This document shows positions 7,177-13,308 of a DNA stretch of 14,529 nucleotides, piece after piece. Both the position numbers and the translations under genes were made by a program. Position 1 is the first letter of the stretch. Every line of letters begins with the position of its first letter. Source of the DNA: an uncultured Deinococcales bacterium. Its GTDB lineage: Bacteria > Deinococcota > Deinococci > Deinococcales > JAAFIG01. The stretch spans positions 1-14,529 of the forward strand of contig CAXTTL010000122.1 of the NCBI GenBank assembly GCA_964247135.1, in the 5' to 3' direction. The notes under the pieces are model-generated. The model saw only the letters and a program-made list of their open reading frames with translations. It was not told the origin of the DNA and did no database searches.

Positions 7177-8729
7177 TTACGCTGCTTATTCTTATTCCTG
7201 CCATCGCCGCCATTATTGCCGCAGCAGGCGACAACAAAGCCCAACTCGCCAAACGCGTTGCCGTGGCAGCCAGTCTGGTCTGCACGATTATTTCTGGCGC
7301 AATGTACTTGGGCTTAAACCTGAACGGCGGTTTGCAGTTCCTCGAGAAAGTGCCGTGGATGCCGCAGGTTGGTGTCTCGTACTTTGTCGCGTTGGACGGC
7401 ATCAGCTTGCCGTTTGTGGTCTTAACCTCCTTGCTGACGTTGGTCAGTGTGCTTGCCAGTTGGGATGAAGACCGCAAAAGCTTCTTCGCCCTGTTCTTGG
7501 TGATGCAATCGGCTTTAACGGGCGTGTTTGCCAGCCTCGATTTGATTTTGTTCTTCGTTTTCTGGGAAGTTGTTTTGATCCCAATGTTCTTCATCATCGG
7601 CGTCTGGGGTTACGAAAACCGTCGCTATGCCGCCGTGAAATTCGTGATCTTCTCGCTGACTGGTTCAGTCTTGATGCTGGTCGGAATCCTCGCCCTCGCG
7701 TTTGGAATCTCGAGCAGTGCAGGCATTCCGCTCACGTTCGATTACAGCATCCTGCGCGATCACGTTTCGCTCGTCTCGAGCCTGCCTGGTGTTGGCTTGA
7801 TGTTCTGGGGCATTATCGTGGCGTTCCTGATTAAACTTCCCGCCTTCCCAGTCCATACCTGGTTGCCGCACGCGCACACCGAGGCGCCCACCGCCGGTTC
7901 GATCATGTTGGCGGGTGTGATGCTCAAAATGGGAGGTTACGGCATTCTGCGCTTTAACCTCGGTTTGTTCCCGCAACAGATGCAGGAATATCAGGTGGCG
8001 CTGTCCATCCTTGCCACCGTCGGCGTGATTTACGGCGCGTACTGCGCGATGGCTCAAAAAGACCTCAAGCGCATGGTCGCGTACTCGAGCGTCAACCACA
8101 TGGGTTACGTGCTGTTGGGGATTGTCAGCCTGACCCCGATGGGCATTCACGGTGCGGTCTATCAAATGGTCGCGCACGGTCTGATCACGGGTCTGATGTT
8201 CATGATGGTCGGTTTCTTAAGCCACCGCACCCACACCCGAGAGATTGCCAAAATGACGGGCATGTACGCCGCGATGCCGATGCTCGGCGCGATCATGTGG
8301 GCAGCTTTCCTGGGCGGTCTTGGAGTGCCTGGCATGGCAGGTTTCATCGGCGAATTCACGGCGCTGTCGGGTGCCGTGCAAAACCCTGTGACCGCGCCGT
8401 ATGCCTACATCAGTTTGCTCGGCATCATCATCACCGCAGGTTTTATCCTCTACGCGATTCAACGCGTCTTGCTGGGTCGCGCCCCAGGTTCGGACAATCA
8501 CGCGCACGACGATCACGCCCCAAGCTCGAGCGTGGCGATGGTCAAACACGAAGCCACCAGCCATGCTTTCCACGATCTCAGCTTCCTCGAGATTGCTGCC
8601 GCCGCGCCGCTTTTGGTGCTGGCAATCGTGCTTGGTCTGTATCCCAACGCCCTCTCGCCCTGGATTGATTCGAGCGCCCAAGCGCTCTTGAACACTGTCA
8701 AGGTTGTCGCATTGGGAGTCTCGAGATGA
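7173..8729 (+). CDS. nuoM: NADH-quinone oxidoreductase subunit M
   Basis: LDGISL, FFVFWEVVLIPMFFIIG, KLPAFPVHTWLPHAHTEAPT, LKMGGYG, AYSSVNHMG, GFIGEF. Start placed at ATG 7173 (ATGA overlap with the nuoL stop). Confidence 0.97.
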   Translation: MITLLILIPAIAAIIAAAGDNKAQLAKRVAVAASLVCTIISGAMYLGLNLNGGLQFLEKVPWMPQVGVSYFVALDGISLPFVVLTSLLTLVSVLASWDEDRKSFFALFLVMQSALTGVFASLDLILFFVFWEVVLIPMFFIIGVWGYENRRYAAVKFVIFSLTGSVLMLVGILALAFGISSSAGIPLTFDYSILRDHVSLVSSLPGVGLMFWGIIVAFLIKLPAFPVHTWLPHAHTEAPTAGSIMLAGVMLKMGGYGILRFNLGLFPQQMQEYQVALSILATVGVIYGAYCAMAQKDLKRMVAYSSVNHMGYVLLGIVSLTPMGIHGAVYQMVAHGLITGLMFMMVGFLSHRTHTREIAKMTGMYAAMPMLGAIMWAAFLGGLGVPGMAGFIGEFTALSGAVQNPVTAPYAYISLLGIIITAGFILYAIQRVLLGRAPGSDNHAHDDHAPSSSVAMVKHEATSHAFHDLSFLEIAAAAPLLVLAIVLGLYPNALSPWIDSSAQALLNTVKVVALGVSR

Positions 8730-10385: not shown

Positions 10386-11825
10386 TCAATTCAGCGTCCG
10401 TCCGCCGCTCGAGCCGAGCAAGGCATTGGCTTTTTGAATGTAACCCTCGAGCGTGACCGCCCATTCATCCGAAGGCTCGAGGTGCGGCAGGGCGATTTGC
10501 GCGTGGTACAAAATGCGGCTCGGTTCGCGCCAACCGAGTTGCACGAGCGTGTCGGCAATCATCTGGTGCGCCAGAACCCAGTCGCGGCTGGCTTCTGGCG
10601 CAAACTCGAGCACGCGGTTGTAATGCTCGAGCGCGTCGTCGAGGCGGTAGTATTCGTAGGCAATATTGGCGAGCAACAAACTGGCTGGAATGATCGCGCC
10701 CGCCTCGAGCGCGAGGGTGGCTTGGCGTTCGGTGGCGTCAAAATCGCCCAATCGGTACTCGAGTTCGGCAAGGTCGGCGAGGACTTCGGCTTTGTAGGGG
10801 TATTCGCTGTCAAGCAGCGCGGCGTTGAGGCTGCTTCTGGATTCTTCGGGCAGTCCGGCATCCATTTGCGCCAAACCCATTTCGTGCAGCGCGTAAGACT
10901 TGTCGGCGGCAGGTGCAAGTTGCACCGCCCGAGAGAACGCCGCCAGCGCCCCGGGCATGTCCGCCATCGCCGCCAGCGATTGCCCGTGCACGAGTGCCAC
11001 GCCAAAACTCGGTTCGCCGACTTCATCTTCGAGCGCTCGAGCCAGTTCCGCGCGTTCTCTGGCGAGGCTGGGGTTGTCCAGTGCCAGGTGCGCCCGGGCT
11101 TCCAAATGCAAACGGCTGGCGGCTTCCAGCGCTGGTTCGAGGTTGTTGTACAACCCTGCAACTTGCTCGAGGGTGCTCAGGGCTTCAAAGGGTTCTTCAA
11201 GTTCGAGAAGCATCGCGGCTTGATCCATCAGCAAAGCGGCTTTGTCGGTGCCTGTGGTCAAATCTGCGCCGTGACTGTATGCCTGTTCCGCCTCGCGCCA
11301 ACGCGAAAGTCCCTCGAGCGCCCCACCGCGCCACGACCAGTAACGCCAACGCAAAAACGCGGGCAGTTCCTCGAGCACAATGCCCTCAAGCAATTCGAGC
11401 GCGGTTTCGGGTTCACCCAGCGTCACCAAGGCGCTGACCGCATGAAATTTCGCCACGCTCGAGCCGCCGCGCGATTGTGCCGCCAACTCGAGCGCCCGCA
11501 TTTTGCGCGGTTCGGCATCATTGATGCGTTCACCCAATTCAAACGCTTCCAACTCGAGGGTGAACGCGATGTTCGCCGCCCGCAGCGCCATGTACGTCGG
11601 GTCTTGGCGCAAGAGCGGATTGCTCAAGACCGCGTTCGACAAACTCTGCGACGAACCCTCAATGCCTTCACGTCCGTAGAGCGTGTAAATGCCCGCCATC
11701 TCGAGGTCGCACAAGGCGGCAATGCGCGGGTCACGACTGCTTCTCGCGCCTTTCTCGAGCGTTTCAAAGGCAGTTTCAAAGTCGCCTTTTTCCAAGGCTT
11801 GATGGGCGGTTTGCAGGATATCCAA
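10386..11825 (-). CDS. Tetratricopeptide-repeat (TPR) helical protein, function unknown
   Basis: 479-aa Ala/Leu/Glu-rich ORF with repeated TPR-like helix pairs (e.g. GGALEGLSRWREAEQAYSHG, LAELEYRLGDFDAT, LANIAYEYYRLDDALEHYNRVL). TTG start is uncertain. Confidence 0.85.
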   Translation of the reverse strand: MDILQTAHQALEKGDFETAFETLEKGARSSRDPRIAALCDLEMAGIYTLYGREGIEGSSQSLSNAVLSNPLLRQDPTYMALRAANIAFTLELEAFELGERINDAEPRKMRALELAAQSRGGSSVAKFHAVSALVTLGEPETALELLEGIVLEELPAFLRWRYWSWRGGALEGLSRWREAEQAYSHGADLTTGTDKAALLMDQAAMLLELEEPFEALSTLEQVAGLYNNLEPALEAASRLHLEARAHLALDNPSLARERAELARALEDEVGEPSFGVALVHGQSLAAMADMPGALAAFSRAVQLAPAADKSYALHEMGLAQMDAGLPEESRSSLNAALLDSEYPYKAEVLADLAELEYRLGDFDATERQATLALEAGAIIPASLLLANIAYEYYRLDDALEHYNRVLEFAPEASRDWVLAHQMIADTLVQLGWREPSRILYHAQIALPHLEPSDEWAVTLEGYIQKANALLGSSGGRTLN

Positions 11826-11834
11826 AGCGTGTCA

Positions 11835-11840
11835 AGCATA
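11835..11840 (-). promoter_or_regulatory. Candidate -10 element (TATGCT) for a leaderless or very-short-leader TPR transcript
   Basis: A TANNNT hexamer lies 9 nt upstream of the TTG start and there is no obvious Shine-Dalgarno sequence. Leaderless transcripts are common in Deinococcus-Thermus. Confidence 0.35.
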
Positions 11841-11956
11841 ACCCGAGGAGGCGGGGATTGATTGAATTTGGTTTAAGGTTTGGCAAGTTTAGAAAATGAA
11901 GCTCGAGATCAGGCAATTCGGAGCTTGCTGACTGTTTTGCCGACCCTTTCGGTTTG

Positions 11957-12186
11957 AGCGACCCAAACCCGTCAGCGATGCCGCCCGCCAGGTGCGTTTT
12001 GGCATCAAGAAGGTGCTGCTTTCAGGGTCAAGAAGCGACCCAAGCCCGTCAGCGACCATGCCCGTTAGGTGCATTTTATGGTCAAGATAGGTGCTGCTTT
12101 CAGGGTCAAGAAGCGACCCAAGCCCGTCAGGTGCTGCTTTCAGGGTCAAGAAGCGCGTCAACGGATATGCAAGGTGCTGTAGAAGA
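11957..12186. repeat. Nested and tandem array of a ~37-40 nt hairpin unit (5 clear copies plus 1 degenerate)
   Basis: Intact unit 12112-12151 (AGCGACCCAAGCCCGTC AGGTGCTGCTTTCAGGGTCAAGA). Copies at 11957-12033 and 12034-12111 are each interrupted by a variant unit (11974-12010, 12051-12088). Degenerate copy at 12152-12186. Confidence 0.9.
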
Positions 12187-12243
12187 ATTAAATGGAATCC
12201 AAATAATTTTCTGACCATTCCTGAAACTCGAGCGGCACAAACC

Positions 12244-12281
12244 AAAAGTGGTGAACGCCAATAACGCGTTCACCACTTTTT
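12244..12281. terminator. Intrinsic terminator downstream of ilvE, potentially bidirectional
   Basis: Perfect 15-bp inverted repeat AAAAGTGGTGAACGC (12244-12258) / GCGTTCACCACTTTT (12266-12280) with a 7-nt loop and T-runs on both strands, about 25 nt past the ilvE stop. Confidence 0.9.
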
Positions 12282-12304
12282 AAATCTCGAGATTGGATTA
12301 CAAA

Positions 12305-13267
12305 TCAATTCGCGTAGGTTAACCAATGCTCGTAGCCTTTGGCTTGCCCACTGGTCGCCTCGAGGTAACGCTTTCTGATCTCGAGCGAGATTTTACCCGC
12401 CACGCCATTGCCGATCTTGCGGAAATCGATCTCGCTGACTGGGGTGACTTCGGCGGCGGTGCCGGTCATGAAGACCTCTTTGGCGCAGTACAGTTCCTCG
12501 CGGGTTGCCATCGTTTCGACAACCTCCAAGCCCATGTCCTTGCAAATCTGAATGACAGAGTCGCGGGTGATGCCGGTCAAATTGACGCTTCTCGAGATGG
12601 CGTAGACCGTGTTCTTGTTGATGAAAAAGAAATTCTCGCCCGTGCCCTCGGCAATAAAGCCGTTCTGGTCGAGCAGCAAACCCTCGTCAAAACCCGCCGA
12701 CACCGCGTCCATGCGAGCCAGGGCGCTGTTGACGTAATTGCCGCCCGCTTTGGCTTTGCCAGGCATGGCGCCTGCGGGCAGGCGCGTCCAGGCGGTGGTC
12801 ATGAGCCGAGCGCCCTTTTGAATGGCTTCATCGCCCAGGTACGCGCCCCATTCCCAACCCGCGACCATCGCCAGCACTGGGCAGGGCAGGGGATTGACGC
12901 CCAAAGTCTGACCGCCGCGCCACACCAGCGGACGCAAATAACATGACTTATAATTGTTGGCGCGAATCACCTCGAGATGGGCGTGTGAGATTTCTTCCTG
13001 GGAGAACGGAATGGGCATTCGCAAAATATGGGCGCTGTCGAAAAGGCGCTGCGTGTGATCGCCCAGCCGAAAGACTGCCGCGCCACGGTCGGTCTCGTAA
13101 GCCCGTACACCCTCGAAAACGCTGGTGCCGTAATGGAGGGCGTGGGTCAAGACCGAAACGGTGGCTTGTTCTTGCGGCACGAGCTTGCCGTTAAACCAGA
13201 TCATGCCCGCCTTGATGCCGGTGTCGCCGCCAACACTGCCTTTGGGTGCCTCAACTGTCTGTGTCAT
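12305..13267 (-). CDS. ilvE: Branched-chain amino acid aminotransferase (PLP fold type IV)
   Basis: HALHYGTSVFEGVRAY, YLRPLV, KAKAGGNY (PLP lysine), EGTGENFF, GITRDSV, EVFMTGTAAEVTPV. Start placed at ATG 13267 behind an AAGGAG RBS (13272-13277). Confidence 0.96.
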   Translation of the reverse strand: MTQTVEAPKGSVGGDTGIKAGMIWFNGKLVPQEQATVSVLTHALHYGTSVFEGVRAYETDRGAAVFRLGDHTQRLFDSAHILRMPIPFSQEEISHAHLEVIRANNYKSCYLRPLVWRGGQTLGVNPLPCPVLAMVAGWEWGAYLGDEAIQKGARLMTTAWTRLPAGAMPGKAKAGGNYVNSALARMDAVSAGFDEGLLLDQNGFIAEGTGENFFFINKNTVYAISRSVNLTGITRDSVIQICKDMGLEVVETMATREELYCAKEVFMTGTAAEVTPVSEIDFRKIGNGVAGKISLEIRKRYLEATSGQAKGYEHWLTYAN

Positions 13268-13308
13268 AAAACTCCTTGAGATGGCTCGAGCCATGTTGAA
13301 AGCGCAGT

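Follow-up and report, generated by a model that had tools for sequence, protein, structure and literature searches.

We analysed a 14,529-nt stretch of DNA (the window) from an uncultured Deinococcales bacterium (GTDB lineage Bacteria; Deinococcota; Deinococci; Deinococcales; JAAFIG01; assembly GCA_964247135.1, contig CAXTTL010000122.1). The window is the entire contig C122 of a draft genome, G000 (5,091,702 bases, 386 contigs), and encloses an array of short hairpin units, two of which carry a further unit within their loops. On balance, we favour the interpretation that this array is made of a mobile hairpin element, 36–40 nt long, that is non-autonomous and specific to one lineage and would be handled as a folded single strand by an enzyme encoded elsewhere and acting in trans. 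Pairs of filled and empty alleles, together with nests at other loci, support the core of this interpretation, which an earlier note on this DNA had already put forward: a mobile hairpin unit, tiny and non-autonomous, whose landing sites include its own loop. Plain coordinates below are positions in the window, and labels of the form G000:C (or C followed by a number) give the contig of the window's own genome.

Hairpin units in the window

The array at 11958–12152 parses as U[u1]-U[u2]-U, in which U is a 40-nt hairpin unit present three times and u1 and u2 are 37–38-nt units in the loops of the first two. The earlier note had proposed the same parse from the sequence alone, and it was confirmed by Tandem Repeats Finder (11957–12130, period 77, 2.2 copies, score 257), by repeat blocks and by in silico excision. 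A 42-nt block occurs three times in the array (identical at 12011 and 12089, at 71% identity at 12129), and a 54-nt block is present twice at 78% identity. Removal of 11975–12011 and 12052–12089 leaves two copies of the empty unit at 12113–12152. The array and the repeat remnant that follows it consist of these parts:

11958–11974, plus strand: outer unit 1, 5' half (GCG, 5' stem arm GACCC, left part of the loop CCCGTCA)
11975–12011, plus strand: inner unit u1 (37 nt, stem GATGCC/GGCATC, in the loop of outer unit 1)
12012–12034, plus strand: outer unit 1, 3' half (GGTGC, right part of the loop, 3' arm GGGTC, CAAGAA)
12035–12051, plus strand: outer unit 2, 5' half
12052–12089, plus strand: inner unit u2 (38 nt, stem GACCAT/ATGGTC, extra T after CAAGA)
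12090–12112, plus strand: outer unit 2, 3' half
12113–12152, plus strand: unit 3, empty (40 nt, stem GACCC/GGGTC, unbroken loop CCCGTCAGGTGC)
12153–12186, plus strand: right-arm remnant of a separate dispersed palindromic repeat, Z (arm AGCGCGTCAACGGATATG...)

When rejoined, 11958–11974 and 12012–12034 form a 40-nt unit that resembles 12113–12152. BLAST identified 100% identical copies of u1 (G000:C198:8780-8816) and of unit 3 (G000:C104 and G000:C244), and the composite of outer unit 1 and u1 recurs at C67, C198 and C199. The GACCAT/ATGGTC stem of u2 is the most frequent stem type, and a covariance model (R1) scored u2 at 60.1 bits at 12049–12090.

The segment at 12153–12186, which the earlier note took for a degenerate copy of the unit, is actually the right arm of Z and is found at nine other G000 loci. 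Z is a long imperfect palindrome of ~190–200 nt that exists in empty and unit-filled forms (G000:C89:13380-13640, C96, C104, C244, C314), and its hairpin loop is a usual landing site for units. At C40, C67, C77, C89, C96, C104, C229, C244 and C314, the arm AGCGCGTCAACGGATATG... comes after a unit or after a Z loop that is empty; a search of the genome with the arm string gave 12 matches, 10 of which are Z arms, including that of the window. In the window the right arm is shortened and the matching left arm is missing.

Unit anatomy and ends

Units consist, in order, of a 5' GCG, a stem of 5–7 bp, a loop of ~18 nt (G CCCG NN AGGTGC NTNTT), the other stem arm, and CAAGA followed by one base. Alignments reveal invariant GCG, CCCG, AGGTG(C) and CAAGA blocks and a variable loop spacer of 1–2 nt, with stems that vary by subfamily. 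In a MAFFT alignment of 63 units of all lengths (A1), long- and short-stem units fell into two registers; pair counts were taken from a gap-free alignment of 29 units (A2) only. The 6-bp helix of A2 is 98.9% paired, with compensatory changes in five of the six pairs, while slid controls are 21–43% paired, and the observed covariation score was reached by none of 500 shuffles. We identified 19 perfect 6-nt stem types among 223 simple units from G000 and other assemblies. A perfect anchored stem of at least 6 bp was present in 50% of these units, compared to 9.7% with randomly re-paired arms. These pairing patterns indicate that the hairpin is under selection.

We derived unit ends from pairs of filled and empty alleles, with 120 nt of flank matched on each side. 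Of the 23 scorable pairs, 19 are compatible with a unit that starts at GCG and stops one base past CAAGA; the other four have diverged flanks. Three pairs are informative: C257 permits only that offset, L084 permits that offset or one base to the left, and L139 permits that offset or one base to the right. A GCG start and CAAGA+N end is the sole placement compatible with all three. Filled and empty alleles are otherwise contiguous, which corresponds to precise insertion of GCG...CAAGA+N with no target duplication. Units thus differ from classical miniature inverted-repeat transposable elements, in that no target-site duplication of fixed length accompanies them. Nor do the arrays have the organisation of a CRISPR array, as units abut or nest without spacers.

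The base before GCG is A in 94 of 136 arrays (69%), the last base of the unit is A in 97 of 136, and the base after the unit is G in 103 of 136 (76%). Filled/empty pairs also document insertion at T|T, G|A, A|A, T|G and A|T sites. We found no fixed 4–5-nt target among unit sites, only the A|G preference. The earlier suggestion that units always sit at an AG therefore describes the window, where u2 needs its extra T, and becomes a preference genome-wide. The companion idea of a shared CT core, or strict AG/CT target, is contradicted by the GCG...CAAGA+N ends, the lack of duplication and the non-AG sites.

Landing sites and mobility

We identified 33 filled/empty comparisons, of which 28 are distinct after overlapping copies of one stretch are dropped; three or four of the 28 are too diverged to read. 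Landing sites fall into four groups: unique orthologous DNA, the loops of repetitive extragenic palindromic (REP) sequences and other palindromes, an element of the IS110 insertion sequence (IS) family, and the loops of the units themselves. Palindromes that host units are REP1, REP2, REP4 and Z, as well as a repeat that we call Y.

The first of these groups includes transfer RNA (tRNA) genes. G000 encodes an array of 22 tRNA genes on one strand at C157:1827-5563 (L123), and in a related genome (L023:5000-7300) five genes of this array (Trp, Ser-UGA, Leu-UAG, Gln and Ala) contain a unit. Four of these five are no longer called by ARAGORN. In tRNA-Ser(UGA), for example, the unit sits in the anticodon loop, and in tRNA-Trp and tRNA-Ala it sits in the D region.

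In passing we observed an element, W, that is a conserved, single-copy, G+C-rich and structured intergenic element (L025:2470-2600, L016, L019, L085:3560-3800, G000:C128:6142-6323). W carries units at two fixed sites, with unit types that differ between genomes. An Rfam search gave nothing for W. In L085 the element is located downstream of an orthologue of the aminotransferase gene found in the window.

Nesting and mobile composites

When inner units are excised in silico, the outer units are restored intact (19 at depth 2, three at depth 3); a few restored outer units have mismatched arms. The stem types of outer and inner units mix freely, and reciprocal combinations also occur, with ACCAT-type units inside ATCCC-type units (C66) and ATCCC-type inside ACCAT-type (C2, C72, C263). 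A contig of an unrelated sequencing run likewise has an ATCCC-type unit inside an ACCAT-type loop. These free and reciprocal combinations, and the nests in other assemblies, show that nesting is insertional and not peculiar to the window's contig. The unit loop holds exactly one A|G step, which accounts for the constant position and orientation of the inner unit.

Nested composites are themselves mobile. All five ATGCC-type units of G000 sit inside a CCCAAG-type unit, and the resulting composite, U[ATGCC], is hosted by a REP1 loop (C199), Z loops (C67 and the window) and another unit (C198). Many loci in sister genomes match this composite as well. This distribution shows that the 77-nt nested composite U[u1] has itself multiplied, and the variety of host contexts means that cargo in the loop does not stop mobility. 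A search of G000 for a split 'master' element, with half-units bearing matching arms 150–6000 nt apart, gave four matches, none convincing.

Distribution of the unit family

The core CCCG..AGGTGC occurs 140 times in G000, on both strands and mostly with unit-like flanks. A token parse of the genome yielded 143 arrays, two of which are chance 'RL' matches: 102 are single, 19 are singly nested, and the rest are tandem or complex, with depths of up to 3–4. The 18-letter loop motif GCCCGNNAGGTGCNNNTT is found 98 times in G000 and its reversed pattern zero times; the array pattern is therefore far beyond chance. Arrays lie within long open frames in 47 of 143 cases, compared to a mean of 118 of 143 (range 112–125) for 20 random placements, and are mostly non-coding. 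G000 contigs often end inside arrays.

The loop motif is broadly distributed within one taxonomic family. We found 24–189 copies in 16 of 18 sister genomes of this family (five genera) and none in the family genomes G011 and G015; 22 genomes from four other families of the order have 0–2 copies. An exact motif scan of one genome per species identified at least 105 stretches. Among the 80 matches listed, 71 are metagenome-assembled genomes named Deinococcales bacterium and nine are single matches in unrelated phyla. Assemblies other than G000 contain at least 148 arrays in these at least 105 stretches, among them 99 single and 17 singly nested. A covariance model built from 29 units gave 55–66 bits in G000 and, in 150 other genomes of the class, only single matches of at most 29 bits (18 of the 150 genomes). 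The unit family thus appears, from these searches, to be confined to one uncultured Deinococcales lineage.

The dispersed copies and empty sites that the earlier note recommended looking for are thus present, in 143 G000 arrays, in sister genomes and in the 33 filled/empty comparisons, and nesting, whose variation it also recommended examining, differs between loci and genomes. Rfam, also suggested there, gave no match to a known family: a search of window positions 11500–12600 returned three chance-level matches (E 0.99–3.5), none at gathering score. In the literature that we consulted on nested or self-inserting hairpin repeats, small dispersed repeats, Deinococcus repeats, RAYT (REP-associated tyrosine transposase) and IS110, we did not find the unit family described.

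A model for unit movement

The favoured model of a non-autonomous mobile hairpin can be put in steps. The unit would be folded and processed as single-stranded DNA by a trans-acting nuclease or transferase that recognises the loop and the foot of the hairpin. This enzyme would cut on either side, immediately beyond the stem, and the cut piece would be pasted into exposed single-stranded loops, in the manner of HUH-like 'peel and paste'. The insertion sites themselves show that insertion is precise, leaves no duplication and prefers A|G steps, mostly in the single-stranded loops of stable hairpins. Repeated landing in a unit's own loop generates nests, and landing at a unit's edge generates tandems.

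We group the unit family with the small non-autonomous hairpin repeats (REP-like), and there is a fair chance that the mechanism of its movement is new. A more far-reaching version is tentative. Units may represent single-strand transposons of a new, one-hairpin class, smaller (36–40 nt) than any other whose ends are defined, and moved by an enzyme family so far without a link to transposition or by a RAYT in a new loop-reading mode. The loop would then be both recognition site and cargo site, stacking 'Russian dolls', and would have been adopted as an IS110 landing pad.

Several observations weigh against the favoured model. First, the 3' end of the unit is slightly ragged, with A, C, T or a pair of bases after CAAGA. 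Second, some hosts are not loops; the Y site is in a stem arm, and other sites are in coding sequence. Third, the unit type at one and the same site can differ between paralogues or between species (the C10 pair, the IS110 left end, element W). The C10 pair consists of ~150-nt paralogous segments, 2.4 kb apart, that hold an ACCAC and an ATCCC unit at the same position (G000:C10:5977-6014 and 8436-8472). Gene conversion among units would explain such differences as well as repeated insertion does, and the two processes may operate side by side. Fourth, there is no clear replication-strand bias (78 versus 53 by the sign of GC skew, which is weak in G000).

The assembly of the window is a further point of the same kind. 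None of the contigs that we obtained from four sequencing runs, which represent relatives at ~90–95% identity, crosses the array, and no listed run contains more than 0.21 of the sampled words; the array is known from the draft contig alone. The genes on its two sides (TPR-repeat protein and aminotransferase) lie on separate contigs with different adjoining sequence in all five congeners, which leaves no orthologous empty site. The array may therefore include a chimeric join, because its flanks are not neighbours in any of the five. Such a join, if real, would not affect the family-level conclusions.

Finally, no enzyme could be tied to the unit. None of the RAYT, IS200/IS605 or IS110 genes examined, an association with which the earlier note recommended looking for, has a unit as its own end. 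We identified 13 RAYT-like loci in eight genomes (three in G000 and 10 in seven others), all flanked by REPs with a GTAG foot; these REPs are of three or four types, and units are present there only as inserts in a REP. RAYT-like genes are found in 17 of 19 family genomes, including unit-free G011. At 11 loci that encode the IS200/IS605 transposase TnpA, end hairpins are unrelated to the unit and no unit core adjoins the gene. Two of the 11 have a distant match to the loop motif ~1.2–1.3 kb away.

RAYT genes and REP sequences

The leading alternative states that units are an unusual REP class, moved by a resident RAYT that cuts single-stranded DNA beside the hairpin at CT and rejoins it. Two RAYT genes of G000 are intact (NF047646, 196.9 and 83.2 bits) and a third is truncated. 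REPtrons, that is RAYT genes with flanking GTAG REPs, are located at G000:C136:1857-2426, G000:C1:44731-45650 and G000:C383:541-1011. The REP at C136 is GTAGGGGCGCTGCTTGCTGCGCCC, whose constituent 14-mers were counted 40–65 times on both strands, and the REP at C1 is GTAGGGTGCGC...GCGCACC. At C383 a RAYT-like open frame (231 aa) continues in frame across two copies of REP4, and a unit sits in one of the two. Classical REP–RAYT systems thus coexist with units in this genome.

Published RAYT biochemistry fits the anatomy of the unit in several respects. According to PMC8266576, RAYTs cut a single REP hairpin at a CT on either side, and for some of them loop bases are needed while stems can be swapped. 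Most unit junctions are CT on the minus strand, the unit loop is conserved while stems vary freely, and units are often found in REP loops. RAYT-like genes are also present in 16 of 17 unit-bearing family genomes. Because of the published cutting at CT, loop dependence and stem tolerance, a RAYT-like mode of action remains, in our analysis, the most concrete candidate.

However, the GTAG foot, present in G000's true REPs, is absent from units in both A1 and A2, which have AAGC/GCG before the stem. All 13 RAYT-like loci are flanked by their own GTAG REP and not by units. Gene and unit also do not coincide in every draft: G011 has five RAYT-like matches and no units, G017 has units and no match, and G015 has neither (these drafts are 57–94% complete). 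Several insertion sites, moreover, have no CT/AG. Membership of the units in the REP family thus fails on the GTAG foot and on gene linkage, and we consider it rather unlikely that a resident RAYT moves units as a class of REP.

Units share with REPs and REPINs (REP doublets forming hairpins) their short, extragenic, high-copy hairpins, which are handled as single hairpins and cluster in mosaics. They differ in that they have no GTAG foot, no RAYT gene that they flank and no form as an inverted doublet. A long conserved loop is combined with freely variable stems, and units insert into REP loops and into themselves. IS200/IS605 elements and their miniature derivatives, the palindrome-associated transposable elements (PATEs), are likewise hairpin-based, with precise ends and no target duplication, and a single-strand mechanism would suit the small size of the unit. 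In contrast to these elements, units have one hairpin, not two end hairpins, and no fixed 4–5-nt target.

Spread without a dedicated enzyme

A second alternative dispenses with a dedicated enzyme: units would spread by template switching, or by repair or gene conversion at stalled hairpins, with A/G-rich microhomology. Microhomology at unit junctions does vary (0–5 nt; AG, AAG, AAGC, AGAAG), and the ragged 3' end, the arrays with mismatched arms, the sites that hold different unit types and the predominance of stable hairpins among hosts are all compatible with such a process. Nevertheless, unit ends remain constant even where microhomology is 0–1 nt (C257, L125, L084), and the 18-nt loop is strictly conserved across five genera. 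This conservation indicates a sequence-specific partner. We therefore regard enzyme-free spread as improbable.

An IS110-family element that targets unit loops

An IS110-family gene in G000 (NF033542, 197 bits) is located inside a unit. It belongs to an element that is a landing site of units and is itself found in unit loops:

G000:C51:14267-15455 (L110 about 1267-2455); L125–L129: IS110-family element, ~1.19 kb
L125:2186-2221; L126:1749-1784 and 2239-2274; L137:365-487: unit inserts in the IS110 frame or left-end guide region
L130:1571-1609; L131:1753-1791; L133:1485-1522: unit inserts in the IS110 frame or left-end guide region

All six full-length copies, from six genomes, occupy a unit loop at GCAC-CT|...GCT|NN-CGGG. 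Their host units differ in stem type, and one is the innermost unit of a three-deep nest. At the position of the right target guide, the left ends of the six copies read CCCGAAG (two copies), CCGTCAG, CCGTTAG, CCGATAG and CCGTAAG. In each of the six, this segment matches the spacer (two variable bases) of the copy's own host loop, under the guide rules for IS110 bridge RNA given in PMC11208160. The family therefore offers six natural cases of an IS110 guide that changes together with two variable target bases.

Traffic in the other direction is also evident. Units are inserted at six or more different sites of the IS110 element, including the reading frame; one insert of 36 nt introduces no stop and leaves a frame of 384 aa. 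At one left-end site, copies differ in which of two unit types they carry.

These relations bear on the possibility that an IS110-type, bridge-RNA-guided recombinase makes the nests at the CT core of the loop. The use of the loop CT by the resident element in six of six copies, with a guide segment that follows the loop spacer, vindicates the earlier note's lead in part, and nested units share the same dinucleotide and orientation. Tandem unit junctions (...GTCG-CT-TCTTGA...) also loosely resemble the IS donor junction (...GCTG-CT-TGTAAG...). The lead does not extend to the origin of the units. The IS ends (TGTAAGTT... and ...ACACGGCTGCT) are unlike the unit ends (TCTTGAC... and ...GGTCGCT), and a 37-bp double-stranded circle is implausible as a donor. 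The same core CT is found at both junctions and in the empty site at most unit sites but not at C257, L084, L139 and L125. The element was identified in 8 of 19 family genomes, compared to 17 with units, and units disrupt its own reading frame and guide region. Given the differing ends, the implausible circle, the core-less sites and the narrow distribution of the element, we think it very doubtful that IS110 made the nests. The unit is instead the natural target of a bridge-RNA IS110 element and not its product.

This arrangement recalls IS621, which uses a bridge RNA to target REP sequences (PMC11208160), as the IS110 element here targets the unit loop at a CT core. Unlike an IS110 element, the unit is the target, is non-coding, has other ends and sometimes lands without a CT.

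The remaining alternative, in which not transposition but a short-read assembly artefact, or a modular structured RNA with a function, accounts for the array, is highly improbable: compensatory stem changes suit RNA as much as DNA, contigs often end in arrays and the window's flanks are not syntenic in congeners, but the same architecture recurs in other assemblies and in the contig of an unrelated run, insertions in tRNA genes and a transposase frame are unlike a functional RNA gene, and there is no Rfam match.

Comparison with other small repeats and significance

Units are reminiscent of several small repeats outside the REP and IS groups. The small dispersed repeats (SDR) of Nostoc and its relatives, which Elhai et al. 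reportedly described in 2008, are said to be mobile 21–27-nt repeats found at hairpins, with some copies nested, for which no enzyme is known. They differ from units in phylum, sequence and size. The G+C-rich hairpin clusters of yeast mitochondria and the Rickettsia palindromic elements are small palindromes that spread as singles or tandems and land in genes. To our knowledge, no enzyme has been assigned to either, and neither is known for systematic nesting in its own loops. Unlike units, they reside in organelles or in obligate intracellular bacteria, and their sequences are unrelated.

Closer in taxonomy are the small non-coding repeats (SNRs) of Deinococcus radiodurans, a member of the same order, which are numerous and are credited with an 'unusual, mosaic structure' in PMC1978522. 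The likeness is one of description, and the unit model gives only the single weak matches noted above among the 150 other genomes of the class.

The multiplication of very short bacterial repeats is poorly understood, and the unit family provides a testable model. Its assets are clean empty and filled sites, exact ends, an 18-nt loop that something must read, and nested composites that still move. Units also break assemblies and disrupt tRNA and transposase genes, and so matter for annotating these Deinococcales genomes.

Neighbouring genes and other features of the window

Three features border the array:

10386–11825, minus strand: tetratricopeptide repeat (TPR) protein gene (Pfam TPR matches in the minus-strand frame only)
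12244–12280, no strand assigned: perfect 15-bp inverted repeat with A/T runs on its flanks
12305–13294, minus strand: class IV aminotransferase gene, branched-chain type (PF01063, E 2.7e-46)

The array sits 132 nt upstream of the start codon of the TPR gene and downstream of the aminotransferase gene, past its terminator. The hairpin at 12244–12280 is likely this intrinsic terminator and lies outside the unit family. Two open frames of 118 codons (11889–12245, minus strand) and 86 codons (11954–12214, plus strand) cross the array; they are by-products of the repeats, not genes.

We also observed that CTCGAG is a hyper-abundant palindrome in G000, resembling the cyanobacterial HIP1. It occurs 33,925 times in 5.09 Mb (roughly once per 150 bp), compared to ~1,369 occurrences expected from base composition. 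Other six-base palindromes are nearly absent (GAGCTC 0, CTGCAG 49, GTCGAC 121, CCCGGG 124, TTCGAA 131). In the window, CTCGAG is located at 11741–11765, 11902–11907, 12227–12232 and 12286–12291.

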